Source: Dehalococcoidia bacterium (GTDB lineage Bacteria; Chloroflexota; Dehalococcoidia; Lucifugimonadales; JAGWBF01). From it: a stretch of 64,000 bases of DNA. The position numbers were made by a program, and so were the translations under genes. Below the pieces are notes generated by a model that saw only the letters and a list, made by a program, of their open reading frames with translations, was not told the origin of the DNA and made no database searches. Positions 7,110 through 63,065 of the stretch are shown here, in pieces. The first letter of the stretch is position 1, and every line of letters begins with the position of its first letter. Location of the stretch: contig OZ253489.1 of assembly GCA_965261965.1 (NCBI GenBank), positions 130,969-194,968 on the forward strand, given 5' to 3'.

Positions 7110-7596
7110 ACACACCGTACCGGATCGCAGGCATCAACATCATCAGGGCACCCGGAAGTCCTTCGCCACCGGGGCCGCTGGAAGTCCTTCGACGGTCCGA
7201 GGCGTGCTCCTTAGAATGACGGTGGAAAATGGTCATCCCGCCTTCCCCCAACGTCATTCCGCCTTCCCGCAATGTCATCCCGCCTTCCCGCACTGTCATC
7301 CCGAACCGCATCCTCCACTGTCATTCAGGGGAGAGCCTCCCCCCCCTGTCATTCCGAGGAGCGCACGACGAGGAATCTAAGATGCCCCTCTAGAGGAGGG
7401 TCCGTTGCTTCGAAGAGTCCCCCATGTCGCCGGGATTTTAGATTCCTCACTGCGTTCGGAATGACAGGAGGGGGATTGTCATTCCGAATCCCCCCTTTCA
7501 TTCCGAGGAGTGCCTTCCCCCTCTGTCATTCCGGGGAGCGCCCCCCCCCTGTCATTCCGAGGAGCGCACGACGAGGAATCTGAGATGCCCCTTAAG
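7110..7596 (-). repeat. Family A array 2, part left of the IS1380 insertion
   Basis: One complete 118-bp copy in reverse orientation (7348-7465). The first 46 bp of a second copy (7551-7596) are cut by the IS. GTCATYCCGCC/GTCATTCCG sub-repeats lie at 7200-7340 and 7470-7550. Confidence 0.8.
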
Positions 7597-19324: not shown

Positions 19325-20090
19325 CCTGGGAAGCTCAATCTGCCGATAATATAGAGCCACTAGCGGCCTTTGCGGGAAAGAAAGTCCTTGAATGCCTGCT
19401 CCACACCGAACTCTTTGACCGTGGTAGAAAGAAGCTCCCGTTCATTCCGCCACAACGGATTGCGCCGGACCTAGGGTCTGTGCGGGACCAGATGCGGAAG
19501 GCGGCAGCCAGCATCTTACCATACTTCAACACATGACCTGAGAAGCTCAATCCGCCGATAATATAGAGCCACTAGCGGCCTTTGCGGGAAAGAAAGTCCT
19601 TGAATGCCTGCTCCACACCGAACTCTTTGACCGTGGTGGAAAGAAGCTCCCGTTCATTCCGCCACAAAGGATTGCGCCGGACCTAGGATCCGTGCGGGAC
19701 CAGATGCGTACGGCGGCAGCCAGCATCTTACCATACTTCAAAGCATGATTTAGGAATCTCAATCCGCCGGTAATATAGAGCCACTAGCGGCCTTTGCGGG
19801 AAAGAAAGTCCTTGAATGCCTGCTCCACACCGAACTCTTTGACCTTGGTGGAAAGAAGCTCCCGTTCATTCCGCCACAACGGATTGCGCCGGACCTAGGA
19901 TCTGTGCGGGACCAGATGCGTACGGCGGCAGCTAGCATCTTACCCTACTTCAAAGCATGATTTAGGAATCTCAATCTGCCGATAATATAGAGCCACTAGC
20001 GGCCTTTGCGGGAAAGAAAGTCCTTGAATGCCTGCTCCACACCGAACTCTTTGACCTTGGTGGAAAGAAGCTCCCGTTCATTCCGCCACA
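19245..20090. repeat. 212-bp tandem repeat x4 containing the 3' ends of two convergent genes
   Basis: Units start at 19245, 19457, 19669 and 19881, an exact 212-bp period. Each unit contains the last ~26 codons and stop of the LLM gene, the spacer, and the last ~31 codons and stop of the crotonase gene. Copies carry SNPs. Confidence 0.9.
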
Positions 20091-21129: not shown

Positions 21130-21945
21130 ATCCCGAACGCCGGCTTATCACGCCGAGCCGCCCACTGTAATTCCGAACCCCCTACTGTCATTCCGAACCG
21201 CAGTGAGGAATCTAAAATGCCCCGACCAAAGCCTCGTCCAATACTACGATAAGCCATAGGGTGAGCAGGCATCTTAGATTCTTCGTCGTGCGCTCCTCAG
21301 AATGACAGTGAAGGGGCGCACTCCTCAGAACGACAGTGAAGGGGCGCACTCCTCAGAATGACAGTGAGGAGGGTGCTCCTCAGAATGACAGTGGGGGGCG
21401 CGCTCCTCAGAATGACAGTGAGGAGGGTGCTCCTCAGAATGACAGTGGGGGGCGCACTCCTCAGAATGACAGTGAAGGGGCGCGCTCCTCAGAATGACAG
21501 TGAGGAGGGTGCTCCTCAGAATGACAGTGAAGGAGGGTGCTCCTCAGAATGACGATAAGGGGGCGCTACTCAGAATGAGAATAAGGGGAGGCGCCAGCTG
21601 TAATTCCGAACCCTCCCCCTGTCATTCCGAACCGCAGTGAGGAATCTAAGATGCCCCGACCGAAGCCTAGTCCATTTCTACGACGAACCATAGGGTGAGC
21701 CAGCATCTTAGATTCTTCGTCGTGCGCTCCTCAGAATGACAGTGAGGGGGGCGCGCTCCTCAGAATGACAATAAGGGGAGGCGCCAGCTGTGATTCCGAA
21801 CCCTCTCCCTGTCATTCCGAACCGCAGTGAGGAATCTAATATGCCCCGACCAAAGCCTCGTCCAATACTACGATGAGCCGTCGGGTGAGCAGGCATCTTA
21901 GATTCTTCGTCGTGCGCTCCTCAGAATGACATGGAGGGGAGGGCG
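21130..21945 (+). repeat. Family A array 3
   Basis: Three 120-bp copies (21187-21306, 21621-21740, 21811-21930) and about ten ~31-bp CTCCTCAGAATGACAGTGARGRGGGYGC sub-repeats (21296-21600). Confidence 0.85.
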
Positions 21946-22101
21946 CTCCTCAGAAGGTGGGGTGCGGGGAAACGCGGCGGCCTCAGCTGGTAGCGCCCGG
22001 CCTTGGCTGGGTGGCGCTGCGGGCGCAGATGGGTGGCGGTCGGGCGCAGCGGGGAGGCGCTGCGGGCGCGAGTGGGTGGCGGTGGGGAGGCTGGCTTACC
22101 T

Positions 22102-29390: not shown

Positions 29391-30986
29391 GAGTTTGTCT
29401 CATAGACCGGTGGGCGGGTTGAGTAACACAGGTGTGGGAGCGATGCGCCTCAACAGAGGTTGGCCCGTCCAGTTGCACCGGCCACTTGTCGGCCCCCAGA
29501 AAGGTCGTCTACTCTCTTAGTTCCATGGCGCCTTGACCCAGTCCCAAGGCGCTTGGCCGCTGCGCCATAGCTTGAGCAAGTTATGGGTCGTCCCTGCCAG
29601 CGACCACTCACTCTGTGCAGCGCCCAACCCCCGTCTCATAAACCGTCGGAACCCCTGGCCTTCCTTGACCTGTCCGAACACCGGCTCCACCAGTACACCC
29701 CGCTTCTTGTACAGAGCTCGGCCTCGCTTTGTCAGCAGCTTGCGCTCCATCCTGTCCCTCGGGCTCAGTCCTTTTGGTATACGCCCTCGGGGACACCCCT
29801 TCTCCCATAGCAGCTTCCGCTGTTTCCAATCCTTGGTGGTGGCAATAAGAAGCTCAGGCATCTCTGGCCAGGGGCAAGCCCTGATGTTGGCCTCACTCCA
29901 GTACCCGGCATCGGCCAAGCCCGCTTTGGGCCGGTCCTCTATGCCGGCTGCTTCCAGAGTATGCGCCATGGTTTGGAGCATCGGCTCCAGTTGCTGCACA
30001 TCGTTGGCCTCTTGGGTCACTCCAACGGCTACTATGATCTGCTCCTCGCTCACCACCGCCTGGGCATTGTAGCCCTGCACGTACCCTTGCCTGGTCTTCA
30101 TGATACGACTGTCCGGGTCGGTGGTATTAGCCTTCGCCCCTTCGGTAGGAAGTGGCTCTACCACCTTGGGCTTTCGCCCTCGCTTCTTTTTGCCTGTGAC
30201 ATCTTCTTCTGCCCGCCGTCGCTCCACGTGCTCTTGGACAGCCTTGGCTCCTGCTTCAGCCTCCCGCTGCAGACGTTCCTTGGCTTCCTTCAGGCGCTTG
30301 AGCCGCTCCGTCCGTCCCCCTAGCCCTTCCGGTAGCTCATCCCCTCGCCGGTCGGGACCATAATGGGCATCCTCTTCAGCATCCGTTGCCTTGGCCTCTG
30401 CCAACATGCGCCGCACTTCTTCTTCAATGGCCTGGTGGCTCCGGTTGGTGGCCAGGGCCGCGTTGGCTGCCACCTTCGTCCCATCAAGAGCCACTACCCC
30501 CAACTTCACCAGACCCGCTTCATGGCATAACCTCAGTACCTCTACAAAGAGCTCCTCGAACGCCTCCTCGCGCTCCGCCCTAAAGCGACAGATGGTACGG
30601 AAGTCTGGCTGCCGGTTGGCCGCCACCACCCGGAATCCTACATCTTCCTCCAGAGCACGGGCTATGCGCCTGGAACTGCGTACACCCAGGCAGTAGCCGT
30701 ACAACAGGATGGCCACCATCATCCCCGGATCGTAGGCCGCTGCACCCCATCCATCACTTCGATAGACTGCATAGAACTCCCTCAGATCCATCTGGCCTAC
30801 TGCATCTACAATGAACCAAGCCAAGTGACCCTCACTCAGCCAATCCCTCATGGACGGCGGCATCAAGTAGCTCTGGTCTCGCTCGCAACTCAGAAGGTTA
30901 TAAGCCATAGTGTCCTACCTGCCTGATGTTTCTATGAGCTTACTGCTTCGCCAACCCCGCAGGAAGGGGGTTTATGGGACACGCTC
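29391..30986 (-). mobile_element. IS1182/IS5-like insertion sequence, copy 1 (1596 bp)
   Basis: Imperfect terminal inverted repeats GAGTTTGTCTCATAGACC (left end) and GAGCGTGTCCCATAAACC (reverse complement of the right end). A 4-bp direct repeat CCAT lies on both flanks (29387-29390, 30987-30990). Confidence 0.85.
29517..30908 (-). CDS. IS1182/IS5-family DDE transposase
   Basis: 463 aa. N-terminal DUF772-like region (YDPGMMVAILLYGYCLGVRSSRRI), a central charged coiled segment and a C-terminal DDE region. The family name is from memory. Confidence 0.88.
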   Translation of the reverse strand: MAYNLLSCERDQSYLMPPSMRDWLSEGHLAWFIVDAVGQMDLREFYAVYRSDGWGAAAYDPGMMVAILLYGYCLGVRSSRRIARALEEDVGFRVVAANRQPDFRTICRFRAEREEAFEELFVEVLRLCHEAGLVKLGVVALDGTKVAANAALATNRSHQAIEEEVRRMLAEAKATDAEEDAHYGPDRRGDELPEGLGGRTERLKRLKEAKERLQREAEAGAKAVQEHVERRRAEEDVTGKKKRGRKPKVVEPLPTEGAKANTTDPDSRIMKTRQGYVQGYNAQAVVSEEQIIVAVGVTQEANDVQQLEPMLQTMAHTLEAAGIEDRPKAGLADAGYWSEANIRACPWPEMPELLIATTKDWKQRKLLWEKGCPRGRIPKGLSPRDRMERKLLTKRGRALYKKRGVLVEPVFGQVKEGQGFRRFMRRGLGAAQSEWSLAGTTHNLLKLWRSGQAPWDWVKAPWN

Positions 30987-35124: not shown

Positions 35125-35545
35125 GAAAAGCTGGGGCGCTACTCCGGCTGATGCACGGCGACGGGCATGGTGGGTCTGTCAGCAAACCAGATGGCAACTC
35201 CTCCCAGGGCGGTCAGTCCGGCAAACACCGAAAAGCTGGGGGCGCTACTCCGGCTGATGCACGGCGACAGGCATGGTGGATCTATCAGCAAACCAGATGG
35301 CAACCCCTCCTAGGGCGGTCAGTCCGGCAAACACCGAAAAGCTGGGGAGCTACTCTGGCTGATGCACGGCGACGGGCATGGTGGGTCTGTCAGCAAACCA
35401 GATGGCAACTCCTCCTAGGGCGGTCAGTCCGGCAAACACCAAAAAGCTGGGGCGCTACTCCGGCTGATGCACGGCGACGGGCATGGTGGGTCTGTCAGCA
35501 AACCAGATGGCAACTCCTCCCAGGGCGGTCAGTCCGGCAAACACC
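35125..35545. repeat. ~105-bp tandem repeat x4 made of the MFS gene 3' end
   Basis: Units start at 35125, 35230, 35336 and 35441. Each holds 14 nt of downstream sequence, the stop codon and the last ~29 codons (..[23 protein letters not shown]). Only the fourth unit is joined to the gene. Confidence 0.9.
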
Positions 35546-36777
35546 AAAAAGGGAATAAGATAGGACCCTCGGGTGTCGAACATGTAGCCGGCGAATAGGG
35601 GAGCCACCATCATGCCGATGTTGTTGGGCAGCTGAGACAGCCCCATGATGGTGGCAAAGGACTTCCGCCCGAAGTAATCTCCCCGGATTGCGGTCAGCAG
35701 AGGCACCCGTCCACCGAACCCTATGCCATAAAACACCGCGAACACGTAGACCATCGCCACATTATCCGCGAATGCTATCACCGTTATGCCCACCGTCTGG
35801 AACGCTATGAACACAAAAATCGCCGCCGGCTTGGATGTCCGGTCAGCCAGGTATCCGGCCATGGTCTGGGTTGGCAGCGCCACGGCGGTATAGGTCAACA
35901 CCACTATCCCGGCAGAGCTCAATGACATCCCCATATCCGTCAGCTTCGGCACCAAATGAAGAGCCAAGCTCACTATGGCTACGCTGGAAGATAGATGAAC
36001 AAAGGAGATGATCCAAAAAGCCCGGGTGCGCAGGGCTTGCCTGGCGGTGAACTCCGGTTCTTCGAACCCGGCGGATTCAGTCCTTGATCCCGTACTAGCC
36101 GGCCGTGGAGGATCGCCGTCAGGGAGGAGTCCGTGGTCTTCGGGACGGTTGCGAATGAACTTGGTTGCAGGCAAGCAGAACAGCAGGACGAAGACCCCGA
36201 TGCCAAGGGTAGCTTTATGAAAGCCCACCGTATCGATCACCACAGCCAGGACTGAAACCAGCAGCCCGGCAATATGAATGCCGGACATGGCGGACGACAT
36301 AGCAATGGACCGCTTTCTGATGAACCAGTTGTTGACGATGGTGATGGAAGCGAGCCAACCCCCCAGGCCGGAGCCCACGGTGAGAATGATGAACGCCAGG
36401 TAGAATTGCCAGATCTGTTCGACCGTGGAAAGATAGATGAAGCCGCACCCCATGATCGAGAAGCCGATGAAAATCATCCGGCGGCTGCCGAAGTGGTCGA
36501 TCAGAAATCCTTCTATGGGACCGATAGCTGCACCCTGCACCCGGGAAAAGGCGAAAGCTCCCGATAAGGCAGTCCGGCTCCAGCCGAACTGACGTTCCAG
36601 AGCTACCATGTATGTGCCCACACCTTGGAAAACCCCCAACGACATGACCGATATCAAGAAAGAGACCACAGCAACCATCTTCCAGCCATAGAAGATGCTG
36701 CCTTTCCCACCTGAACGGCCCAAGAACCGGTCATCCATCTCCTGGGAAGAGCGGCGGCTATCCTTGTCAGCGGACAT
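35455..36777 (-). CDS. MFS transporter
   Basis: 440 aa with about 12 hydrophobic segments in a 6+6 arrangement and a central hydrophilic loop. Confidence 0.85.
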
Positions 36778-41837: not shown

Positions 41838-42009
41838 TAGGGATAGTCTGAATAAGTCCCCGCGGATGCGGAGGATGGACGTGAAACCCGTCCCTACAGA
41901 GGGGCGAGGTTCCCGACTTCGCGGGAATGACGGGCTTCATGGGGCGGGAATGACGGTCTTCAGGGGGCGGGAATGACGGTCTTCAGGCGAGTTGTTCAGA
42001 GGTTCCCTA
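41838..42009 (+). mobile_element. Family B MITE, copy X1 (TA-flanked, GGGAnnnTCTGAA inverted ends)
   Basis: TA-GGGATAGTCTGAATAAG...GTTGTTCAGAGGTTCCC-TA. Internal hairpins GGACG-N7-CGTCC and TTCCCG-N-CGGGAA. Three internal GCGGGAATGACGGnCTTCA sub-repeats. The right end overlaps the carB stop codon. Confidence 0.7.
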
Positions 42010-49289: not shown

Positions 49290-49483
49290 CCAGCATTGTC
49301 ATACTGAGGAGCGCCTTCCTCCCTCCCCCCCGTCATTCTGAGGCTCCTCCTCCTCCCCTGTCATGCTGAGGCGCGCACGCCTCCCCCCTGTCATTCTGAG
49401 GAGCGCACGCCGAAGAATCTAATATGCCGGCTAACATCATGGCTCGTCGTAGTAATGGGCAGGCCATTGGAGGAGGACCTAAG
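49290..49483 (-). repeat. Family A sub-repeats plus one truncated copy abutting IS1380 copy 2
   Basis: GTCATWCTGAGG sub-repeats at 49296-49390. A copy starts at 49390 (GTCATTCTGAGGAGCGCACGCCGAAGAATCTAATATGCC, core with CGTCGTAGTAA) and ends at the IS boundary. Confidence 0.7.
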
Positions 49484-51200
49484 CCCGAATCCACCGATGG
49501 ACGGGGGGGGGACAGGGGAAGGGGGTAAGGGAGTTACAGGGGCGATGATCCGGGCTCGAATTCGGGTGGACGGGGGGTTGGCGGGCGGTCTGCAGGCGCT
49601 TTGGGGGCAGCGACGTCGGCCTGCGGTGGCTGTGGAGAGCGAGATGGCAGGATAGGCCACGGCAAGAGGCGCTCGCGGACCGGGATGGCGTGAGTTTGGG
49701 GGGCGTTCAGTTGACCGGATGACGGGTCGGTGGCAGAAGGGCGCCGTCAAGCTGGGAGTGGAATGGCTCGCAGCCGGGTCAGGGCGCGACTGAACTGCTC
49801 CTGCCACGGCCAATGCTTGGGAAGATGCAAAGTGAGCCGGGGCGCCGAGCGAGTGAGCCGTCCGGCCAGGGCGAAGACTCGTCGTCTGAGCGTCTTTGTA
49901 GTCGCGATCCGTTCACCCAGGCCGATGCGGGCTGTTGTCCAGCGGGCCAGGTTGTGGGCCATCGCCTGCACCGCCAGCCAGGCGCCGTTGGCGGCGAAGC
50001 GGCCGGACGGCATGTGGCTGAGTCCGACACCGTACTTGAGGTCGCGTATCGCATTTTCGATCTCGGCGCGGCGGCGATGATCAGCCTCCGGTTCGAGCAT
50101 CTCCCCATCGCGGTCGGTGATGAAGCCGTGATGGCTGCAGGTGGCGAAGAGGGCCAACTGGGAACCTGGCGTGGGCTTCACCCGCCGGACGATGAGCCGC
50201 GCCGGCGCGGCATCGGGCTCACTCTGGAAGGGGATATAGGTGGTCTCTGCCACATCGGCGGCGCCGTCCATCCAGCCGTCCATCCAGTGGGGAATCGGCG
50301 TCCAGGCATCTTCAGGTATGGCCTCGATGACATTGTGCAGGCTTTTGTGCTGGCGGATGGCGATGGAGAAGCGGGCATCCATCCTGCGGCAGACGGATGC
50401 CACGCCATGAGCGTAGAAACCGCTGTCGGCCCGCACCGTGATGTCCCCTGGCCCCGGCGTAGCGCACCCGCCCCACCGTCTCAGGCAGGAAGTGGGCGGC
50501 GCCGCGGGCGGTGTTGACGGGGCCCTCGCGCAGCCGGGCCATCAGCACGTCTCCGGCGCTGGCGGCGATAGCCAGCAGTGGGTGATAGCCCCGCTTGCCG
50601 GTGTAACCATGGTGTCGGGCCCCTTCCTTGTCCAGTCCGTAGGTCTCGCAGACGGTGGAATCGAGGTCGATAGTCAAGGGTGCGTCGCCGGGTCCGGCCT
50701 GCCATGCCCGTGCCAGCAGCTCGCGGCTCACCCGGTCCGGTTGGCGGACGTGGCCCCAGCGAAAGCTGCGCAGGAAAGCGCCCAGTGTGGATGGCGCCCT
50801 GACCAGGCAGTCGAGAACACCGGCCGTCCCACCGGCTCGCAGCGCATCGGCGTCGTCGATGCAGTCGCCGCCAGCCAGCGCGGAGGCGACCAGCGTCATT
50901 ATCTTGTCGCCGGTGTTGGCCCGGCCCGGCGCATCACCCAGGTCCAGGCGCTGCTGCACCAGTTGGGAAAGACCGGGGCGCAGGGCCAAGGCGGCTGGGA
51001 GGAGCGGGCCGGCATCGTCCACCAGGCGGTGATCGTCGAAGGCGACTTGGATGCGGTCGAGGTGGTTGCGTGGTAGCATCTATTGGGCGCTCCTTCTCTG
51101 GGGCCGGGTTGCCGTTACAAAACCATTATCCCAGATTCAGAGGAGCGCCCTCTCGCCGCTTTAGAACGCTGACCAGACCCACTCCTTCGGTGGATTCGGG
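49484..51200 (-). mobile_element. IS1380-family insertion sequence, decayed copy
   Basis: It has the same terminal repeats as copy 1 (CCCGAATCCACCGATGG ... CCTTCGGTGGATTCGGG). Flanks are CTAAG and CTAAT. The transposase reading frame is broken. Confidence 0.8.
49747..51079 (-). pseudogene. IS1380-family transposase pseudogene (frameshifted)
   Basis: ORFs 50312-51079 and 49747-50436 together cover the 441-aa protein of copy 1. Relative to copy 1 there is a 2-nt shortfall near 50430-50450 and a 12-nt WMDG duplication. Confidence 0.8.
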
Positions 51201-52941: not shown

Positions 52942-53082
52942 ATGTTCCTCCTCAATTAAGCGCTATCAACCTCAGAACATTCGTGCCGGGCGCCCCGCTA
53001 TGGTGCAAAGCTGAAAGCCTTGGTATTATACCATCGACATTGACGAGGTTCGTTCATCAAGACCGTTTTGGGGAGGTGGCCT

Positions 53083-53685
53083 GTGGCTTCAACCGTTCAA
53101 GTAACTGTGTGGTACGACTACACTTGACCCTTCTGCTATGTCGGTCTGGCAAGACTCGACAAGGTGGCTCAAGCTCATCCTCTGGATGTAGAACGTCTGC
53201 CGTTTCTGCTTTCTCCCAACAAACCGCCGGAGGGTGAACCTCGGCGCCTGTTAGACGGAGAAACCGAAACCGAGCTGTCTCCTGCCGCTCAGGAGCGGGC
53301 TCGGGCAGCGGGCTTGGTTATGCGGAGGCCTGCTTGGTCTCCCAACACCATGCTTGTCCATGAAGCGACGCTGTACACCAAAGAAAAGGGGCAGGATGAC
53401 CGGTTCCACCATGTTGCAGCCAAAGCATACTGGGAGGATGGCGCCGATCTGGCAAACATGGATGTGGTCCAGAGGCTTGCCAATGAATGCGGCTTGGATT
53501 GGGCAGAATTATCAGGGCGTCTGGAATCGGGGCATTACCGTCAGCAGGTGCTGGACACATACGAACAAGCCAAAGCAATTGGTGTCGGTGGCACGCCTAC
53601 TTACAGGATTTCAGGGGAGCTTCTGCCGGGTGACGTTAGCTACGAATCTCTGGAAGAGGCTGTTCAACAAGCTGAATCCAGCTAG
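53083..53685 (+). CDS. DsbA/FrnE-like oxidoreductase, selenocysteine candidate (UGA at 53125-53127)
   Basis: The ORF track begins at GTG 53164. The same frame is open upstream except for one TGA, giving (M)ASTVQVTVWYDYT-U-PFCYVGLARLDKVAQAH. This is the DsbA-family CPxC position. GGAGG lies 6 nt before the GTG at 53083. A bulged 8-bp hairpin at 53140-53160 lies 12 nt after the UGA. Confidence 0.65.
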
Positions 53686-53695
53686 CGGACTGTTT

Positions 53696-53844
53696 TAGGG
53701 AACCTCTGAACAACTCGGCTGAAGCCCGTCATTCCCGCCCCCTGAAGCCCGTCATTCCCGCGAAGGCGGGAACCTCGCCCCTCTGTAGGGACGGGTTTCA
53801 CGTCCATCCTCTGCATCCAAGGGGACTTATTCAGACTATCCTTA
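53696..53844 (-). mobile_element. Family B MITE, copy X2 (reverse orientation)
   Basis: TA-GGGAACCTCTGAACAAC...CTTATTCAGACTATCCT-TA. Two internal GAATGACGGG sub-repeats. Confidence 0.7.
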
Positions 53845-53881
53845 GAGTTGGTCTAACCTGGTTATCCTGTGTCGGGGGAGA

Positions 53882-54661
53882 ATGATGCCCTACGAGGGCT
53901 TGAATCTGGAAGGTAAAAATGCTCTGGTGACCGGATCGGCCCGCGGGATCGGCCGGGCCTTGGCTGTTGGTCTGGCTGAGGCGGGCGCCAATGTGGCTGT
54001 TTCCGATACATCGGAGCGGCTGGAAGAGTCGCGGGAAACCCAAGAGATGATAGAGAAGCTGGGAGCTAAGAGCGGAGCCTATCTCCTTGATGTTCTGGAT
54101 GTTGGTAAGATCCCGTCGACCCTTCAACAGGTGTCAGAGGATTTGGGCGGCTTGGACATTTTGATCAACAACGCAGGGGTTAGAGTGCGAAAGCTCGCCT
54201 TGGAAGTGACCGAAGATGAGTGGGATTATGTGGTCGATACCAACCTGAAGGGTGTCTTCTTCTGTGCCCAAGCAGCAGCGAAGCAGATGATTCCCCGTGG
54301 CAGCGGTCGAATCATAAACATTGCCTCCCAGTTTGCTATCGTTGCGCAGAATGACAGGGCACCTTATTGCGCCAGCAAGGGCGGGGTGGCCAACCTGACC
54401 AAAGCCCTCGCCTTGGAGTGGGCACGATATAAGATCACCGTGAATGCCATAGGCCCCGGACCCACCGATACTCCAGGCATTCAAATTGCCAATCCCCGGT
54501 CCCCTGAAGATATCCAACGCGAGATGGATGCCGATATGCCCTTGGGGCGGCGGATGGAGCCTGAAGAGCTGGTGGGTGGAGCGATTTATCTGGCGAGCCC
54601 ATCGGCGGTAGCTACCACGGGACACCTTCTGATCGTCGACGGTGGCTGGACAGCCCGGTAG
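53882..54661 (+). CDS. Short-chain dehydrogenase/reductase (classical SDR)
   Basis: 259 aa. TGSARGIG Rossmann motif, NNAG, YCASK (YxxxK). Confidence 0.9.
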   Translation: MMPYEGLNLEGKNALVTGSARGIGRALAVGLAEAGANVAVSDTSERLEESRETQEMIEKLGAKSGAYLLDVLDVGKIPSTLQQVSEDLGGLDILINNAGVRVRKLALEVTEDEWDYVVDTNLKGVFFCAQAAAKQMIPRGSGRIINIASQFAIVAQNDRAPYCASKGGVANLTKALALEWARYKITVNAIGPGPTDTPGIQIANPRSPEDIQREMDADMPLGRRMEPEELVGGAIYLASPSAVATTGHLLIVDGGWTAR

Positions 54662-54689
54662 GGTTCGAGTCCAAACCCTCGATGATATT

Positions 54690-54718
54690 TTGGATATTTT
54701 GCGTATTGGGCACATAGT
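54690..54718 (+). promoter_or_regulatory. Candidate promoter of the bPH-SHOCT cassette
   Basis: TTGGAT (54690-54695), 17 nt, CATAGT (54713-54718). AGGAGG lies 8 nt before the ATG at 54771. Confidence 0.3.
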
Positions 54719-54770
54719 ACAGTGTAGCTGTCCTACTTCATGTCTGTAATCAGTCTAGGAGGTACAACAG

Positions 54771-55361
54771 ATGACTGCCCAAGTTGACGCCATCAATGAC
54801 GCTATAGGTGATCTGAATGGATTTTATCGGATGGGGATGCGGGATGAGGTAAAGGAACTGCCGAACATCCTAGGGATGAACGAACTCCCAGAGAAGATAG
54901 TGGTCGCAGAATACCATGATAACGTGCCGTGCTTGCTGGTTGTTACAGACAGTCGGCTCATCCTTGTCGAGGCGAAGTTGAGCTTCTCCCGGAATGGAAA
55001 GGTGAGGGTGAAGGACTTCCTCTGTGACAAAATTACGTCCGTTGAATACTCGCCAGGAATGGCGAGGCACCAAATCACATTCTGGGTATATGGCAATAAA
55101 GAAACATTCAAGATATTGTGGTGGGATGGTAAATTCCAAGCAAGTCAGATCGCCGAATACCTGCGCTCGAAGGCAAACGCGCAAGCCGCCGTTTCTGACA
55201 CGCACACCGCCACACAAGTGGATGCCATCAATGACGCTTTTCGCTTGGGCGGTCACAAGCGTAAGATCAAGGCTAGGTTCGTGCAGCAGTTGGTGGACAT
55301 CCTGGGTCATGACGAGATCCCGAAGAGGATAATACCAACAGCATGGGGTGTGGGGGGCTGA
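54771..55361 (+). CDS. Bacterial PH (YokE-like) domain protein, 5' part of a gene split at a G6 run
   Basis: 196 aa. One complete unit (VDAINDAIGDL...LLVVTDSRLILVEA...ITSVEYS...) plus the first half of a second unit. It ends at a TGA immediately after GGGGGG (55352-55357). Confidence 0.6.
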   Translation: MTAQVDAINDAIGDLNGFYRMGMRDEVKELPNILGMNELPEKIVVAEYHDNVPCLLVVTDSRLILVEAKLSFSRNGKVRVKDFLCDKITSVEYSPGMARHQITFWVYGNKETFKILWWDGKFQASQIAEYLRSKANAQAAVSDTHTATQVDAINDAFRLGGHKRKIKARFVQQLVDILGHDEIPKRIIPTAWGVGG

Positions 55362-56164
55362 TTGCTACGGATAATCGGCTTATCGTTGCTAATGAAACGT
55401 TCTCACTAAAACTAAAAATAAAAGAATTTCCTTACAACAAGATTTCGTTCGTTCAATTTTCTACAGGTACCTGGAGAGGAGAACGCAACATCACCATTCA
55501 CGCGTACGATGGCAAAAAAGAGGTATTTAATGCGGCGAGTAACGACGAAGCCATCGGATTCACCGCACACTTGCGGGAGAAAATTCACTCAAATATCACT
55601 ACATCCGTCCCAGACGATTATAAAACCGCCAAAGTCTATGCCATCAATAATGCTATCCGCGGGCTGGACAACTTTGACCTAGCGCCGGTGCACAGAGGCG
55701 AGATCAAGCAGTTGCCGGACATTCTGGGAGAGAACGAACTCCCGGAGAAAATGATGTGTGTAATATATGATGGTTGGGACGGAATGCTGTTTGCTACGCC
55801 CAGTCGTCTCATCTTTGTCCCATCTGGGGGGAAGCGCTCACTAAGGATAGAGGCATTCCCCTACGATGCGATTACGTCCGTTGAGTCCTCTACGGGAATT
55901 GTCTTCGGCAAAATGACTATTTATTCATCCGGTATGGAAGCAACATTTGAAACGATAGTTGACCAGGAATTCGAAGAATACCTGCGAGCAAAGATTCCTG
56001 CCTCCGCCCCCAGTCCCGCCACCTCAGACTACGCTCCTGCACCGCCGATGATGGGTACTGTATCGGTTGCCGACGAACTGGAGAAACTCCATAATTTGGT
56101 GGATAAGGGCATTCTGATGCAGGAAGAATTCGAGGTTCTAAAAAAGAAACTGATCCAGATATAG
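55343..56164 (+). CDS. Bacterial PH domain x2 + SHOCT-like C-terminus, 3' part of the split gene
   Basis: 273 aa. It continues unit 2 (GLIATDNRLIVAN...ISFVQFSTG), has a full unit 3, a Pro/Ala linker and then ADELEKLHNLVDKGILMQEEFEVLKKKL (SHOCT-like). Confidence 0.6.
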   Translation: MGCGGLIATDNRLIVANETFSLKLKIKEFPYNKISFVQFSTGTWRGERNITIHAYDGKKEVFNAASNDEAIGFTAHLREKIHSNITTSVPDDYKTAKVYAINNAIRGLDNFDLAPVHRGEIKQLPDILGENELPEKMMCVIYDGWDGMLFATPSRLIFVPSGGKRSLRIEAFPYDAITSVESSTGIVFGKMTIYSSGMEATFETIVDQEFEEYLRAKIPASAPSPATSDYAPAPPMMGTVSVADELEKLHNLVDKGILMQEEFEVLKKKLIQI

Positions 56165-56373
56165 GCAACTGGAGTAGATTTTCGGTTTATCTGTTACGTT
56201 CTATGTTAATCAGCGACCAAAAATTGGTTCGGTGAAAGTGGCCCAGTGGGTGGATTCTAGCGTGGCTGGAAGGGTTCAGTCGTTTATCATTGTCGCACAT
56301 CTACGACTACGACGGGGTGACTCTAGGATTGGGTGAAGGGCCCCGAGAGGTGCTAAAAAGCCGGGCCTTGTAC

Positions 56374-56503
56374 ATGCCCTTGGGGCGGCGGATGGAGCTT
56401 GAAGAGCTGGTGGGTGCAGCGGTTTATCTGGCAAGCTCATCGGCGGTAGCTACCACGGGACACTTTCTCATAGTCGACGGAGGCTGGACAGCCCGGTAGG
56501 GTT
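56374..56503 (+). pseudogene. Orphan 3' fragment of an SDR gene
   Basis: 130 bp collinear with 54536-54665 (the last 41 codons, the stop and 4 nt), with 9 mismatches counted by eye. The sequence upstream is unrelated to an SDR. Confidence 0.75.
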
Positions 56504-56541
56504 GCTTCGTCCAAGGGTAGTTCCGTGGCCCGCTGGAAGAG

Positions 56542-57495
56542 CTACAACGCCACTTCCAGACCGACTCCCTCAGTCACGGCCAGATCATATGCCAGCTTGG
56601 CTGCTGCTATGTCGACGACGCCGATACCAAAGTGTTTTACACAAATGTTGTCCGAAGAGTGCCTTCGCCCGGGGGTCAGGCCGGCGACGACTTGGGGCAG
56701 TTCAACCACCTGGTCCCAGCTGATGATTCCCGATTCGATTCCGGCTGCCAATTCGCCCGCTTCATAACGTGCTTGCTCCAAGGAATCCACTATGATCCGG
56801 TTGGCGCGTCGGATCGATGTCGCATCCACCTCCTGTGCATCCAATGTGACAGGCCCGGCGCTCACCAGCAGTGCTCCCTCTTCCAGCCATGCTCCATCCA
56901 GCACCGGGTCTTTTGTGGTGGTGAGACAAACCACTATGCTGCTGCCCTCGACCGCTTCTTGGCTGCTGGCAACGGGTAGGACCTCTGTTTCCAAGGTCTG
57001 AGATAACCGTCGAGCAAAATCGGCGCGCGGCTCAGGGCGCCTGCTGAACACCTTGATAGTTTTAACCTGTCGAGCTTGAGCTACAGCCATCACCTGGGTC
57101 TGAGCTTGGTACCCTGTGCCGATCATGCCGAGGACATCGGCGTCGGCATTGGCCAAGTGGCGTACAGCAACGCCTGTGGTGGCGCCGGTACGCAATGCTC
57201 CAAGCCAGTTGGCGTGGATAAATGCCTTGAGCTGGCCGGTCGCCGCATCGTACAAAATGACATGGTACTGCTGAACGCCGCCCACGGTTGTGTAGGTCTT
57301 GGCTCCGAAAAGGCCTTCATAAGCTAGTCCGCCGCCCATGAGGGCCAACTGGCTATCGCCCAAAGCTATGGTGCGCCGGTCAGCATTGAATGCTTCCCCC
57401 GCAGCATAATGGCGGTGCATCTCCTCCACCTTATCCATCATACTGCCCATGGTTACGGTGTTCTTGATATCAGCGTCGGTCAAGATACGGGCCAT
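56542..57495 (-). CDS. Ornithine cyclodeaminase/mu-crystallin family protein
   Basis: The ORF track extends to 57636. The start preferred here is MARILTDADIKN (ATG 57495). Rossmann motif MIGTGYQAQTQ. Confidence 0.78.
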   Translation of the reverse strand: MARILTDADIKNTVTMGSMMDKVEEMHRHYAAGEAFNADRRTIALGDSQLALMGGGLAYEGLFGAKTYTTVGGVQQYHVILYDAATGQLKAFIHANWLGALRTGATTGVAVRHLANADADVLGMIGTGYQAQTQVMAVAQARQVKTIKVFSRRPEPRADFARRLSQTLETEVLPVASSQEAVEGSSIVVCLTTTKDPVLDGAWLEEGALLVSAGPVTLDAQEVDATSIRRANRIIVDSLEQARYEAGELAAGIESGIISWDQVVELPQVVAGLTPGRRHSSDNICVKHFGIGVVDIAAAKLAYDLAVTEGVGLEVAL

Positions 57496-57672
57496 AGCAA
57501 CCCTCATGGTCTTCAAAATCAGATGACCGATATTATGGCGCCGGTTGGCAATGGGAGCAACACTTGAGCTATGGCGCGCCCGCTGGGGGCGGCGGGAAGC
57601 TCGGCATCGGATATATGATACAATGCCCCGGACCAATCAATGGTCGTATGAATCAGCTCGGAGGGTGCGGCG

Positions 57673-58377
57673 TTGAATTCGGTGAACCAGCAAGAGCCCC
57701 CCAATATTTCCGAAGGATTCTACCGGGAACATGCGGACCGGTATGCGGAAGTATCTCACCAGATGTTGCAGTCGGTGTACATCAAGTCTTCCCATCCACG
57801 ACTTACCGGAGACCTTGATCTGCTCGCCAGACTCAAAGAACTTGTGCCCAGTGGAAGCGGTCTTGATGCTGGTTGCGGTGCGGGCGCCCGGGATGTTTTT
57901 TCGTTCTGGCAGGAGGGATACGATATCTATGGGGTCGATGCCATAGAAGAAAATATCCGGGTAGCCAAAACGGTCCACCCGGAGATATCAGACCGACTTT
58001 CGGTGGCAGACCTGCGGGAGCCGTTGGATTTAGTCGATGATTCCTTTGATTTTGTCATGTGCAACGCGGTGATCCAGCACATCGCACCCGAATATGTGAT
58101 GCAGGTAACGCTGAAGGAGTTTGCCCGTGTGTTGAAGCCGGGCGGCGTGATGCAGCTAATGTTCAAAAACGGTGACGGAGTGTCGACGGTTTTCGACCGT
58201 GATTACGGTGTGGACCGCTCTTTTCTGCTCTATGACGAGCAGGAGGTCCTATCTGCACTGAACAATTTGGGCTTGGACCTTATCGAAGATCCGGACCCCG
58301 AAGTCCTGTCTGGAATAATGTACTTGACCGATCCCAAGCCCGTTGAACATTGTGTGTTTTATACCCGTAAAACCTGA
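57673..58377 (+). CDS. Class I SAM-dependent methyltransferase
   Basis: 234 aa. TTG start with GGAGGG 7 nt upstream. Motif I is LDAGCGAGARD; LKPGGVMQL is the post-II motif. Confidence 0.8.
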   Translation: MNSVNQQEPPNISEGFYREHADRYAEVSHQMLQSVYIKSSHPRLTGDLDLLARLKELVPSGSGLDAGCGAGARDVFSFWQEGYDIYGVDAIEENIRVAKTVHPEISDRLSVADLREPLDLVDDSFDFVMCNAVIQHIAPEYVMQVTLKEFARVLKPGGVMQLMFKNGDGVSTVFDRDYGVDRSFLLYDEQEVLSALNNLGLDLIEDPDPEVLSGIMYLTDPKPVEHCVFYTRKT

Positions 58378-58403
58378 GGGACAACATACCGGTACTCGTT
58401 GAG

Positions 58404-58526
58404 AGATAGTCTGAATAAGTCCCCTTGGATGCGGAGGATGGACGTGAAACCCGTCCCTACGGAGGGGCGAGGTTCCCGCATTCGCGGGAATGACGGGTTT
58501 CAGGCGAGTTGTTCAGAGGTTCCTTA
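58404..58526 (+). mobile_element. Family B MITE, copy X3 (left end slightly truncated)
   Basis: AGATAGTCTGAATAAG...GTTGTTCAGAGGTTCCT-TA. A single internal GAATGACGGG unit. Confidence 0.7.
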
Positions 58527-58853
58527 GGTATGCTTACATAGGACCGGCTGGCCACAGGCATGGCATTTGAACATCTGCCTTCCTTCATGGTAGACTTACG
58601 CCTACATTATTCTATATCCGGTCAACGTGCACCTTCTCAGCCTACCGGTCCAGTAGGTCAACGGTTTGGTTCACTGGCAGCCATTCCGCTGGTGCAAATA
58701 CCCGCTTGTCTCTTAAGCCGCTCTGATGGCTGTCATCAAGTGGGGGAACTTGCGGATCTACGCCCGCAGTTGCGGGGACACAGGAGGTCATCGCGAGGGC
58801 GCCGGGTGACATGGCAGGCAATCCTCATGACGTAGCTCATCTCCTCCTCAACG

Positions 58854-58881
58854 TTTCAAACCTGAAGAACGACCTTATAAT
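58854..58881 (+). promoter_or_regulatory. Candidate promoter for proV
   Basis: TTTCAA (58854-58859), 16 nt, TATAAT (58876-58881), 67 nt upstream of the ATG at 58948. Confidence 0.3.
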
Positions 58882-58947
58882 CTGGTCAGCCCATGAATAT
58901 GGGCGGGTTGACCATGAGCAACAGCAGTTCAGAAAGGCAGGGAAACC

Positions 58948-60219
58948 ATGGCAATGGAAACTGCGACACAATCCCAGAACGGCGCCGGTCATCTCAACTC
59001 CGGCGAGGTAAGCATCTCCGTCAGGGGTCTTTGGAAAGTATTTGGAAAGAACCCGCTTCAAGCCTTGTCCGATGTGAATTCCGGTCTTGACAAGCGGGAG
59101 CTCCAAGAAACCCTCGGCCTGATCGTGGGCTTGCAAGAGGTTAGCTTTGATGTCCACCGTGGAGAGACATTCGTTGTAATGGGTCTCTCGGGAAGTGGAA
59201 AGTCCACATTGGTGCGTTGCTTAAACCGATTGATCGAGCCGACCGCGGGCGAGATCTATGTGGATGGAGAAGATATCCTCAAGGCTGGTCACCAACGCCT
59301 GACCGAGTTCCGGCGGGGTAAAATCGCCATGGTGTTCCAGCACTACGGACTGCTTCCACACCGCAACGTGGTGGACAATGCTTGCTTGGGTCTGGAGGTC
59401 CGGGGGATGGAGAAAACCGAGCGTTACTCCAAGACTCAGGATGTCCTCGACCTTGTGGGCTTGGATGGCTGGGAGCAGTCCTATCCGCGACAACTCAGCG
59501 GAGGCATGCAACAACGTGTGGGGCTGGCCCGGGCCTTGGCAATGGACCCGGATATTCTACTTCTGGACGAGCCCTTTAGCGGACTGGACCCACTCATCCG
59601 CAGGAATATGCAGGATGAGCTGATTCGCATACAACAAGAGCTCCACAGAACCATCGTCTTCATCACCCATGATCTTGCTGAAGCTGTCAAGCTGGGCGAC
59701 CGCATCGTAATAATGCGCGATGGTGCGGTAATCCAGATCGGTAAGCCTGAGGAGATAGTGCTCAACCCGGAAAATGATTATGTTGCAGAATTCACCCAAG
59801 ATGTTCGACGGGAGTCGATATTGACCGCCAACCATATCATGGTTGATCCGTCTTCGGTGGTCTCATCCTGCCATGGACCGGAAGAAGCCCTCCAGGTGAT
59901 GAACAGGAGCGAGTCCGCTTTCGCCTTCATGTTGGACGACGACGAAACATATTTGGGCATTCTAACCGAGCAACAAGCCCATACCGCCCTTCAGGCTGGA
60001 GTAGATAAGCTTGGCGACCACCTGGACAGCTACCTGGATACCGACACCGGACCCATCTCCTACAACATCGCATTGGAGCAGATCATCCCAGTTTGCATGA
60101 TATGTGATTATCCTGTACCGGTTGTGAACGAAGCGGGCAACCTGATTGGCGTGGTGGACCACCACATTCTTGCCGGAGCTCTTTCATCCAACCAGCCAAC
60201 CCAAGACCCCTCCCAATAG
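58948..60219 (+). CDS. proV: Glycine betaine/proline-type ABC transporter ATP-binding protein with C-terminal CBS pair
   Basis: 423 aa. Walker A GLSGSGKST, signature LSGGMQQRV, Walker B LLLDEPFS. The C-terminal ~130 aa look CBS-like. Confidence 0.88.
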   Translation: MAMETATQSQNGAGHLNSGEVSISVRGLWKVFGKNPLQALSDVNSGLDKRELQETLGLIVGLQEVSFDVHRGETFVVMGLSGSGKSTLVRCLNRLIEPTAGEIYVDGEDILKAGHQRLTEFRRGKIAMVFQHYGLLPHRNVVDNACLGLEVRGMEKTERYSKTQDVLDLVGLDGWEQSYPRQLSGGMQQRVGLARALAMDPDILLLDEPFSGLDPLIRRNMQDELIRIQQELHRTIVFITHDLAEAVKLGDRIVIMRDGAVIQIGKPEEIVLNPENDYVAEFTQDVRRESILTANHIMVDPSSVVSSCHGPEEALQVMNRSESAFAFMLDDDETYLGILTEQQAHTALQAGVDKLGDHLDSYLDTDTGPISYNIALEQIIPVCMICDYPVPVVNEAGNLIGVVDHHILAGALSSNQPTQDPSQ

Positions 60220-61333: not shown

Positions 61334-61379
61334 AAGGAACCTCAAGGTTGCAACATGACATAAATATAGCGTTGCATAG

Positions 61380-62975
61380 GAGTTTGTCTCATAGACCGGT
61401 GGGCGGGTTGAGTAACACAGGTGTGGGAGCGATGCGCCTCAACAGAGGTTGGCCCGTCCAGTTGCACCGGCCACTTGTCGGCCCCCAGAAAGGTCGTCTA
61501 CTCTCTTAGTTCCATGGCGCCTTGACCCAGTCCCAAGGCGCTTGGCCGCTGCGCCATAGCTTGAGCAAGTTATGGGTCGTCCCTGCCAGCGACCACTCAC
61601 TCTGTGCAGTGCCCAACCCCCGTCTCATAAACCGTCGGAACCCCTGGCCTTCCTTGACCTGTCCGAACACCGGCTCCACCAGTACACCCCGCTTCTTGTA
61701 CAGAGCTCGGCCTCGCTTTGTCAGCAGCTTGCGCTCCATCCTGTCCCTCGGGCTCAGTCCTTTTGGTATACGCCCTCGGGGACACCCCTTCTCCCATAGC
61801 AGCTTCCGCTGTTTCCAATCCTTGGTGGTGGCAATAAGAAGCTCAGGCATCTCTGGCCAGGGGCAAGCCCTGATGTTGGCCTCACTCCAGTACCCGGCAT
61901 CGGCCAAGCCCGCTTTGGGCCGGTCCTCTATGCCGGCTGCTTCCAGAGTATGCGCCATGGTTTGGAGCATCGGCTCCAGTTGCTGCACATCGTTGGCCTC
62001 TTGGGTCACTCCAACGGCTACTATGATCTGCTCCTCGCTCACCACCGCCTGGGCATTGTAGCCCTGCACGTACCCTTGCCTGGTCTTCATGATACGACTG
62101 TCCGGGTCGGTGGTATTAGTCTTCGCCTCTTCGGTAGGAAGTGGCTCTACCACCTTGGGCTTTCGCCCTCGCTTCTTTTTGCCTGTGACATCTTCTTCTG
62201 CCCGCCGTCGCTCCACGTGCTCTTGGACAGCCTTGGCTCCTGCTTCAGCCTCCCGCTGCAGACGTTCCTTGGCTTCCTTCAGGCGCTTGAGCCGCTCCGT
62301 CCGTCCCCCTAGCCCTTCCGGTAGCTCATCCCCTCGCCGGTCGGGACCATAATGGGCATCCTCTTCAGCATCCGTTGCCTTGGCCTCTGCCAACATGCGC
62401 CGCACTTCTTCTTCAATGGCCTGGTGGCTCCGGTTGGTGGCCAGGGCCGCGTTGGCTGCCACCTTCGTCCCATCAAGAGCCACTACCCCCAACTTCACCA
62501 GACCCGCTTCATGGCATAACCTCAGTACCTCTACAAAGAGCTCCTCGAACGCCTCCTCGCGCTCCGCCCTAAAGCGACAGATGGTACGGAAGTCTGGCTG
62601 CCGGTTGGCCGCCACCACCCGGAATCCTACATCTTCCTCCAGAGCACGGGCTATGCGCCTGGAACTGCGTACACCCAGGCAGTAGCCGTACAACAGGATG
62701 GCCACCATCATCCCCGGATCGTAGGCCGCTGCACCCCATCCATCACTTCGATAGACTGCATAGAACTCCCTCAGATCCATCTGGCCTACTGCATCTACAA
62801 TGAACCAAGCCAAGTGACCCTCACTCAGCCAATCCCTCATGGACGGCGGCATCAAGTAGCTCTGGTCTCGCTCGCAACTCAGAAGGTTATAAGCCATAGT
62901 GTCCTACCTGCCTGATGTTTCTATGAGCTTACTGCTTCGCCAACCCCGCAGGAAGGGGGTTTATGGGACACGCTC
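61380..62975 (-). mobile_element. IS1182/IS5-like insertion sequence, copy 2 (1596 bp)
   Basis: Collinear with 29391-30986 over its full length. A 4-bp direct repeat ATAG lies on both flanks (61376-61379, 62976-62979). It sits between proW and the substrate-binding gene. Confidence 0.85.
61506..62897 (-). CDS. IS1182/IS5-family DDE transposase
   Basis: 463 aa. It differs from the 29517-30908 product at three residues in the supplied translations (G/E, A/T, A/T). Confidence 0.88.
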   Translation of the reverse strand: MAYNLLSCERDQSYLMPPSMRDWLSEGHLAWFIVDAVGQMDLREFYAVYRSDGWGAAAYDPGMMVAILLYGYCLGVRSSRRIARALEEDVGFRVVAANRQPDFRTICRFRAEREEAFEELFVEVLRLCHEAGLVKLGVVALDGTKVAANAALATNRSHQAIEEEVRRMLAEAKATDAEEDAHYGPDRRGDELPEGLGGRTERLKRLKEAKERLQREAEAGAKAVQEHVERRRAEEDVTGKKKRGRKPKVVEPLPTEEAKTNTTDPDSRIMKTRQGYVQGYNAQAVVSEEQIIVAVGVTQEANDVQQLEPMLQTMAHTLEAAGIEDRPKAGLADAGYWSEANIRACPWPEMPELLIATTKDWKQRKLLWEKGCPRGRIPKGLSPRDRMERKLLTKRGRALYKKRGVLVEPVFGQVKEGQGFRRFMRRGLGTAQSEWSLAGTTHNLLKLWRSGQAPWDWVKAPWN

Positions 62976-63065
62976 ATAGCTGTAAATTTGACAAGAGACC
63001 AAAAAAACGTTAAAAAGGCTTAAGGACGATCAACTTAACTAGGAGGAGATAGTTTATGGTTCGGG

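Follow-up and report, generated by a model that had tools for sequence, protein, structure and literature searches.

How does the last part of a gene come to stand twice on a chromosome, with one further gene between the two copies? In an uncultured Dehalococcoidia bacterium (Chloroflexota; contig OZ253489.1 of assembly GCA_965261965.1, positions 130,969 to 194,968, a stretch of 64,000 nt that is called the window here), the tail of a short-chain dehydrogenase/reductase (SDR) gene is repeated downstream of the intact gene, and the 1,708 nt between the two copies (54666-56373, called the cassette here) carry a single gene, whose product combines three bPH_3 (bacterial PH) units with a SHOCT-like C-terminal helix pair. 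Comparison with relatives shows that 1,838 bp, i.e., the cassette together with one copy of the tail, were inserted in the lineage of the window with duplication of the SDR tail, because the relatives have a single tail, the same downstream sequence and no cassette. The route of arrival and the role of the cargo gene are argued with less confidence. Integration by a single crossover (Campbell-type) is considered the most likely route and capture at a staggered break its main rival, while the joint reading, in which a lineage-specific insertion arose by Campbell-type integration and carries a conflict-type cargo of a phage family, has in our judgement about an even chance of being right.

Insertion with duplication of the SDR tail

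The direct repeat that flanks the cassette spans 130 nt and comprises the last 42 codons of the SDR gene, its TAG stop and 4 further nt (Table 1). Its two copies, copy 1 at the end of the intact gene and copy 2 beyond the cassette, are 93.1% identical with 9 mismatches, and both the coordinates and the mismatch count given in the first-pass annotation, which had been made from the sequence without database searches, proved exact. The SDR protein matches Pfam adh_short_C2 over its full length (1-236 of 236, E 2e-59), and its orthologues are 84-97% identical and lie in conserved synteny. No SDR body is detectable 5' of copy 2, as had also been claimed: the preceding 100 nt are 24% identical in the ungapped register, which is the chance level, and the BLAST DNA alignments of the relatives to the window resume at 56372-56374. 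Extensions of 11-23 residues by Pfam and tblastn on this side were considered as residual SDR homology and rejected, given the 24% identity of the DNA and residues unlike those of the orthologues.

A scan of species-representative genomes with the SDR protein led to three Dehalococcoidia metagenome-assembled genomes (L008, L009 and L010; 84-85% SDR identity), and a separate protein search led to a closer relative, L153, with 97% SDR identity and 96.6% nucleotide identity in the flanks. In the first three, the gene order is LLM (-), DsbA-like (+), SDR (+), ornithine cyclodeaminase/mu-crystallin (OCD) (-) and ProV (+), about 41 nt lie between the SDR stop and the convergent OCD stop, and the bPH gene, the second SDR tail and the methyltransferase gene of the window are all absent from the locus. 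Copy 2 holds this ancestral position in the window, with 42 nt to the OCD stop. L153 has one SDR tail, after which it matches the window sequence beyond copy 2 through 56531 and then diverges into a different insertion with a GmrSD_N fragment and copies of insertion sequences (IS). A second SDR tail was found in none of 27 SDR loci, and neither the cassette nor a second SDR gene in any of the four syntenic relatives. The empty site is thus defined in four assemblies, and of the two histories that the first-pass annotation had offered, insertion with duplication of the SDR tail is the one that holds. Copy 1 keeps the SDR reading frame complete, and copy 2 is an orphan fragment that decays at the position of the relatives' single tail.

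The identity between the two tails (93%) and that of either to the tails of L008-L010 (about 78%) indicate that both copies derive from this or a very close lineage. Of the nine mismatched sites, eight have the state of copy 1 in L153 and one (position 44) has that of copy 2; at the latter, the private change of copy 1 replaces Ala by Gly at a residue invariant in 20 orthologues. Copy 2 carries eight private changes. Three of them replace residues that are likewise invariant in 20 orthologues (Pro by Leu, Pro by Ser and Leu by Phe), and such replacements are as would be expected for a fragment freed from selection. Between the window and L153, 4.5% of the sites of the SDR gene differ (35 differences, 28 of them at third codon positions), and the 6% private divergence of copy 2 would correspond to about neutral decay over the whole time span between the window and L153.

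If the cassette and the duplicated tail were ancestral, recombination between the 130-nt repeats in the relatives would have removed the cassette cleanly and left a normal-looking site. Such a history is most unlikely, however, as it needs independent losses in L153 and in the lineage of L008-L010, the tails of L008-L010 are far more distant from the two copies than these are from each other, so that the duplication postdates that split, and the gene family is patchy everywhere. Still less probable, and rejected, is the other history of the first-pass annotation, in which the cassette replaced the body of a tandem second SDR paralogue and copy 2 is its remnant. Copy 2 does lack an SDR body, the Pfam SDR profile also covers 11 residues upstream of the repeat, and SAR202-type genomes are said to be paralogue-rich; yet all four syntenic relatives have one SDR with OCD about 41 nt on, copy 2 stands at exactly the ancestral distance from OCD, nothing SDR-like precedes it (the identity upstream of 56374 being the 24% of chance), and the copies, at 93%, are far closer than any paralogue pair in the 27 loci would suggest. 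An assembly artefact, i.e., a chimeric join or a collapsed or expanded repeat, hardly comes into consideration: although the source is a metagenome-scale assembly and the cassette gene has a frameshift in a homopolymer, which is a typical consensus error, artefactual duplications are near-identical and here 9 of 130 sites differ in a pseudogene-like pattern, both outer junctions are syntenic with the relatives, and the cassette gene has real homologues.

The cassette gene, its product and its relatives

The gene between the repeats now consists of two overlapping open reading frames (ORFs) in different frames (Table 1), which the first-pass annotation had rightly taken for one split gene. Addition of one G to a run of six gives a 464-aa protein, and in the restored frame the alignment runs on through a strand that all six homologues conserve (G-[GS]-L-I-A-T-[DN]-x-R-L-I), both halves being otherwise intact. 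Judged from the sequence, the 1-nt deletion may have inactivated the gene very recently or may be a consensus error in the homopolymer. The run and its surroundings, G_GGG_GGC followed by TGA, formally fit the X_XXY_YYZ plus stop arrangement of programmed -1 frameshifting, which was set aside because none of the homologues has a shift at this site and is kept only as an outlying option.

The AGGAGG motif, 8 nt before the ATG, agrees with the strong ribosome-binding site described earlier. A promoter of the gene's own, proposed at the same time, was not recovered: a sigma-70 consensus scan found no site upstream of the bPH gene, and its regional matches were not above shuffled expectation. The hairpin at the left junction (54665-54682) was listed by a scan whose matches were not above chance. 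In simulations, an unconstrained ORF of 464 codons stays stop-free in about 6% of cases if the cassette is as old as the 6% divergence of copy 2, which suggests that the cargo gene was under purifying selection for most of its residence; this argument fails if the differences of copy 2 predate the insertion.

Pfam bPH_3 (PF14470) matches the protein in three stretches (91.2 bits, E 6e-26, against a gathering threshold of 23 bits), and the V(D/Y)AINxA segment that had been noticed before each unit corresponds to a 29-nt repeat family at 54781, 55216 and 55632. In an AlphaFold2 model (mean pLDDT 70, pTM 0.33, as expected for beads on a string), three units, each made of short helices, a seven-strand PH-like sandwich and a C-terminal helix, are followed by a disordered linker and two helices. 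Block pLDDT is mostly 70-85 in the predicted sandwiches, and the two final helices are predicted to form a short amphipathic C-terminal pair of the SHOCT type. This helix pair is the most conserved block of the family alignment, and most close homologues have a precomputed SHOCT (PF09851) match, some of them weak. The three YokE-like bPH units of the first-pass annotation were thereby recovered; of its SHOCT-like tail, the helix pair stands and a Pfam SHOCT assignment above threshold does not.

The best Foldseek matches in the PDB are the tandem-PH proteins FACT (Spt16/Pob3) and Rtt106, at about 10% identity and TM-scores of 0.15-0.33. Sequence-profile matches to the solved bacterial PH structures 3dcx and 3hsa are marginal (E 0.3-0.8), 3dcx being also among the PH-domain Foldseek matches, and in BFVD, a library of viral structures, the matches are to phage proteins annotated as 'Bacterial PH domain' and 'Short C-terminal domain'. 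As modelled, the cargo is a soluble protein of 464 aa with no enzymatic domain.

The protein also matches phrog_2700, a PHROG phage family of unknown function, in three stretches (E 1.7e-49, 170 bits). Its close relatives amount to 12 matches among 5.8 billion proteins, the close homologues being 37-49% identical and 483-760 aa long with three to five units, and of the five units of the relative P0001, the first, second and fifth have their counterparts in the window protein. The nearest relative shares 49% identity with it, and no cassette copy or donor closer than this was found in that collection. Scans of IMG/VR and JGI metagenomes gave distant single-unit relatives only, and exact-protein look-ups of the window SDR and of the second ORF gave no match. 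The broader bPH+SHOCT family is not rare: at E<=1e-3 it counts 4,722 representatives, at E<=1e-30 still 65, and most are proteins of 170-250 aa with one unit.

Relatives are carried by 46 phage genomes, with the Staphylococcus aureus phages SA13, X2 and 187 as temperate examples. In SA13, the genes for an integrase, a MazE-like protein, the PH-domain/SHOCT relative, ImmA and a cI-like regulator are co-oriented near the att end, and the relative lies within this lysogeny module, two genes from the integrase. Elsewhere, one relative (L001) is found in an island with a ThsB-like TIR protein, PIN, transposases, SNF2 and type I restriction-modification genes, one (L005) adjoins a HEC-03B ATPase, one (L150) adjoins an AriA/NsnB-like ATPase, and two (L151 and L155) lie in elements that bear a resolvase or a D5 primase. 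Lone relatives occur in the RsfS-thiolase interval (L006 and L007), after HpaB (L002) and in the sufC-sufD interval (L154). No conserved partner gene was found across the relatives' neighbourhoods. The profile matches (three times bPH_3, and phrog_2700) and the contexts, either lone or in mobile or defence islands, agree with the earlier description of an accessory module of unknown function, which is absent from relatives of the window, scattered in its contexts and matched by function-unknown families only.

Two of these loci have features of their own. In L154 (8001-9584), a 527-aa bPH_3/SHOCT relative and two small ORFs lie inside a suf operon, between a sufC-like ABC ATPase gene and a sufD-like gene, and no flanking repeat was found there. 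This adds to the cases in which the family has landed at a core locus. In L005, a perfect 267-nt duplication (1330-1596 / 1701-1967) covers the 5' end and the upstream sequence of the HEC-03B-type ATPase gene, 250 nt upstream of the bPH/SHOCT gene P0006, and creates an ORF for a 92-aa N-terminal fragment of the ATPase; it could be a recent duplication or an assembly artefact.

SHOCT has been proposed as an oligomerisation or binding module (PMC3581485) and later as an inner-leaflet membrane anchor (PMC11237479), and bPH domains form oligomeric rings according to the work of Xu et al. 2010 as cited in PMC3581485. As well, some homologues of the SNIPE defence nuclease contain PH-like domains that are predicted to target the membrane (bioRxiv 10.1101/2025.11.03.685801). 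Our literature searches on bPH_3, YokE and PH-domain phage proteins found no tested function.

Routes of arrival

Campbell-type integration is ranked first among the routes because the repeat geometry is that of icd/e14/icdC and because the cargo family occurs in a lysogeny module. A circular DNA bearing a close copy of the SDR tail beside the cargo gene would have recombined within the chromosomal SDR tail by a single crossover. Its recombinase and other element genes would since have been deleted or would never have been present; if there was no element recombinase, RecA-mediated recombination on 130 nt of homology might have done the work. The insert that remains would not be autonomously mobile. 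Its cargo, as modelled, would be a multivalent, probably oligomeric, membrane-proximal binding, scaffold or decoy protein of non-enzymatic nature, expressed from the resident element and serving phage-host conflict, as an exclusion or defence-type moron, and not metabolism. We infer this conflict-scaffold model from the fold, the phage association and the context.

The main rival is a one-off illegitimate insertion with duplication of the target in situ, which involves neither an element-borne tail nor a recombinase. Opposite-strand nicks about 130 nt apart, or a replication template switch, would have opened the SDR tail, a linear foreign fragment would have been captured, and fill-in would have duplicated the 130 nt, the survival of the product being favoured as the SDR stayed intact. 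In its favour, no recombinase, att-like core, terminal inverted repeat or structured end was found, no other genome has an element at the site, lineage-specific states are common to the two copies, among them the 3 nt after the stop, where L153 differs, three other lineage-specific insertions in the same 10 kb point to an insertion-prone region, and an orphan 51-nt HpaB piece beyond the bPH cassette of L002 looks more like repair filler than an att site. We nevertheless hold this route to be rather unlikely, as breaks at bacterial insertions are not usually staggered by as much as 130 nt, four of the eight private states of copy 2 equal outgroup states where about one is expected by chance (a rough hand estimate), and the geometry and identity of e14 are closely matched.

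Several results weigh against the Campbell-type route and against the conflict-type cargo. Between the repeats there is no integrase, excisionase or other element gene, the bPH_3/SHOCT gene being the only one, and the nearest transposase genes, which belong to separate IS copies, are 3.5-5 kb away. ARAGORN found no tRNA in the window, Rfam found nothing in 53000-59000 at E<=1, and a related element at this SDR site was found in none of 28 relatives. The tails themselves give mixed patterns: T54, A87 and the GTT after the stop are common to both copies and unlike L153, which would favour a single sequence duplicated in place, whereas the coincidences of copy 2 with outgroup orthologues would favour two different alleles, and the sites appear too few to polarise whether one copy was imported. 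Flanking duplication was rejected as a signature of the family, L002 being alone in this among nine other loci. For the cargo protein, the Pfam SHOCT match (residues 435-461, 19.1 bits, E 0.0011) falls below the 27-bit threshold, PADLOC-DB 2.0 gave no family at E<=0.1 and NCBIfam no match. The suggested association with defence draws on a handful of neighbourhoods, as defence-model matches (HEC-03B, AriA/NsnB-like and ThsB-like TIR) were found only among the neighbours of some homologues, and the sole published test of SHOCT oligomerisation did not support it (PMC3581485).

Base composition has to be added to these points. The AT-richness of the interval, which had been claimed earlier, is real: it has 48.5% GC against 56.9% in the window, the lowest among sampled windows of 1,708 nt, of which 0.08% are as low. 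As a mark of foreign origin it is weaker than claimed, because low GC is found family-wide and the first ORF has a host-like GC at third codon positions (GC3), so that the deviation is largely one of protein composition. Six of the seven family genes examined have 48-52% GC, including two genes at a shared syntenic site, and the distant L151 member has 55.5%, with flanks of 56-62%; GC3 is 0.62 in the first ORF and 0.53 in the second, compared with 0.63 in both SDR and OCD. Much of the deviation thus appears to come from a protein rich in Lys, Ile, Asn, Phe and Glu, and the low GC would be weak evidence of recent transfer.

Candidate ends of known elements were also sought. The left end of the cassette (GGTTCGAGTCC) resembles a tRNA T-arm, but it had no ARAGORN or Rfam match and was treated as chance. 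No significant attC-like 3' structure was found in 56165-56373 (z = -0.67), the motif GTTRRRY does not fit the junctions, and the two cassette ends share no terminal inverted repeats; an integron attC site and transposon ends were rejected on these grounds. The non-coding ends of the cassette have no similarity to any of the loci compared.

In L002 and also in L003, a 51-nt piece of HpaB (residues 351-367; 9413-9463 / 13400-13450 in L002) recurs at 98% identity about 4 kb downstream, beyond a five-unit bPH gene and a 211-aa membrane-anchored ORF and with no other HpaB homology around it. The L002 contig ends 112 nt past this piece, and three independent assemblies end within about 120 nt. The HpaB piece may parallel the duplication in the window. 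A flanking direct repeat was thus seen at one of nine other family loci, and as background local repeats number about 4 per 520 kb in control loci, the L002 repeat is suggestive at most. A more general proposal, that in these Dehalococcoidia the multi-bPH/SHOCT genes are solitary conflict genes, for defence or exclusion, that spread as recombinase-less single-gene cassettes by copying a piece of a neighbouring host gene (130 nt of SDR, 51 nt of HpaB), is in our view improbable. If true, such cassettes would land in or beside essential genes and operons (such as suf in L154) without killing them, and they would represent an undescribed mode of gene insertion together with a new standalone conflict protein made of PH-like modules alone.

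The locus in its surroundings and among known systems

Table 1. Features of the SDR-OCD locus, with positions in the window.
Feature	Position	Strand	Basis or remark
SDR gene, intact, 259 aa	53882-54661	+	Last 126 nt within copy 1
Direct repeat copy 1, functional SDR tail	54536-54665	+	Repeat comparison
Cassette 5' non-coding end	54666-54770	+	Weak terminator-like hairpin at junction 54665-54682; Shine-Dalgarno AGGAGG 54757-54762
bPH_3 x3 + SHOCT-like gene, 464 aa, now two ORFs (54771-55361 and 55343-56164)	54771-56164	+	Pfam, phrog_2700, homologues, model
Unit 1: N-terminal helices (QVDAINDA...), seven-strand PH-like sandwich, C-terminal helix	54771-55199	+	Model residues 1-143; repeat families D2 and D3
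Unit 2, holds the frameshift; equals unit 2 of five-unit relative P0001	55200-55615	+	Model and alignment
G6 run, one base short of the intact frame (-1 shift)	55352-55357	+	One added G restores ...WGVGGLIATDNRLIV...
Unit 3, best Pfam bPH_3 stretch (residues 320-402)	55616-55999	+	Pfam and model
Pro/Ala/Ser-rich linker	56000-56059	+	Before the SHOCT-like helix pair
SHOCT-like C-terminal helix pair (SVADELEKL...GILMQEEFEVLKKKL)	56060-56161	+	Sub-threshold Pfam match; model helices 433-445 and 451-463
Cassette 3' non-coding end, no ORF of note	56165-56373	+	Similarity and structure scans
Direct repeat copy 2, orphan SDR tail fragment, pseudogene remnant comparable to icdC	56374-56503	+	Repeat comparison
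Native SDR-OCD intergenic spacer	56504-56541		L153 aligns through 56531; same spacing in L008-L010
OCD gene, convergent with SDR, ancestral neighbour	56542-57504	-	Pfam OCD_Mu_crystall, E 2e-53

Compared with relatives, three further lineage-specific insertions lie within 10 kb, making four in all. A 143-nt repeat resembling a miniature inverted-repeat transposable element (MITE) occurs in three copies that are 95-96% identical (53699-53841 on the + strand, 41841-42006 and 58405-58523 on the - strand) and holds an internal hairpin (TTCCCGCGAAGGCGGGAA). L153 has a clean empty site for the copy at 53699-53841, with TTAG once versus twice in the window, an IS5-type target duplication. The inverted 143-nt repeats at 53.7 and 58.4 kb were considered as the limits of a composite element, which was ruled out by this empty site, and also because relatives keep SDR and OCD without the repeats. 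Between OCD and ProV, a class I S-adenosylmethionine-dependent methyltransferase gene (ORF 57673-58377) and a MITE copy occupy about 57497-58920; this insert is absent from L008-L010, where the OCD-ProV gap is about 280-330 nt, and no flanking direct repeat was found for it.

An IS insertion lies at about 61.3-63.25 kb, and IS copies with a DUF772/DDE_Tnp_1 transposase are found at 61379-62977 and 29391-30986. The same IS is present in L153 (4075-5673, 96.7% identical) just downstream of SDR, and L009 and L010 lack the copy at 61.4-63.0 kb. Moreover, a block of 65-71% GC at 49350-51150, in a window of 57% GC, contains a truncated DDE_Tnp_1_4 transposase ORF (50312-51079, - strand) and has the appearance of a foreign IS of high GC; it recurs in more diverged form at 7802-9335, and the related IS of L153 is 81-88% identical. 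Further local direct and tandem repeats occur at 19240-20090, 35125-35551, 21155-21955 and 7311-10271, with periods of about 212 nt and about 105 nt at 93-99% identity, in addition to dispersed repeats of 78-178 nt.

Two neighbouring genes call for separate mention. The OCD ORF as listed (56542-57636, - strand) opens at a TTG 44 codons upstream of the start of homology, relatives align from residue 47-48 of this long ORF, and the real start is probably the ATG near 57504, so the ORF list understates the gap from OCD to the methyltransferase gene. The DsbA-like gene (about 53080-53685) has an in-frame TGA (53125-53127) at the first Cys of its CxxC motif (...VWYDYT-TGA-PFCYVG...), and L009 and L010 have the same stop before PFCY. 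This gene had been considered as a second frameshift, i.e., as a gauge of assembly error, and this was rejected in view of the TGA conserved in relatives. The TGA is a candidate selenocysteine codon, which would make the product a DsbA-like selenoprotein; a hairpin with a GGCA loop begins 14 nt downstream of it, and its folding energy is not significant (z = -1.35).

The architecture described here is already known from icd/e14/icdC, and the protein family is known and uncharacterised. The new points are the proof by empty sites, the absence of a recombinase, the small multi-unit clade and the position of a phage relative in a lysogeny module. The locus provides a clean, dated example of a conserved gene that survived an insertion in its coding end, and for annotation it accounts for an orphan SDR fragment of 42 codons that might otherwise be called as a gene. 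In uncultured Dehalococcoidia/SAR202-type bacteria, the SDR-OCD junction and its surroundings represent an insertion-prone spot, the closest relative L153 having a different insertion (with the GmrSD fragment) directly behind its own copy of this SDR gene. For phage biology, the link of the clade with three to five bPH/SHOCT units to phrog_2700 may provide a lead for a role in phage-host conflict. Nothing known is overturned, and the value of the locus lies in a well-defined candidate and a testable hypothesis.

Among known proteins, FACT (Spt16/Pob3) and Rtt106 also string several PH-like sandwiches together; they resemble the window protein in the repeated fold alone, with no evidence of shared function or of ancestry beyond the PH superfold. 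Within the bPH_3+SHOCT/phrog_2700 family, most members have one unit, whereas the window protein has three and its close relatives three to five, forming a small clade of Dehalococcoidia type, and each unit here bears an extra helical lead-in.

Among mobile elements, integron cassettes and MITE or IS copies share with the cassette that they are small, single-gene, promoter-poor inserts in an insertion-rich genome. However, integron cassettes have an attC-like structure and depend on an integron integrase, neither of which is found in the cassette, and IS, MITEs and transposons have terminal inverted repeats and a target duplication of 2-15 nt, compared with no such repeats and 130 nt here. The cassette has no transposase of its own.

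The closest parallel is the cryptic prophage e14, which, like phage 21, is integrated in icd of Escherichia coli and leaves the icdC fragment behind. In K-12, it begins 165 nt before the icd stop and has a 165-nt icdC fragment after its other end. The e14 element is 15 kb long and carries an integrase, an excisionase and phage genes, in contrast to 1.7 kb, one cargo gene and no recombinase here. The likeness lies in the insertion inside the 3' end of a conserved metabolic gene. In both cases, doubling of the tail leaves the gene intact, as the left copy supplies its end, whereas the orphan fragment on the right borders directly on the native downstream DNA. The repeats are also alike in length and identity, the icd and icdC copies differing, when compared directly, by 12 mismatches in 165 nt (92.7% identity) and the two SDR tails being 93.1% identical over 130 nt.

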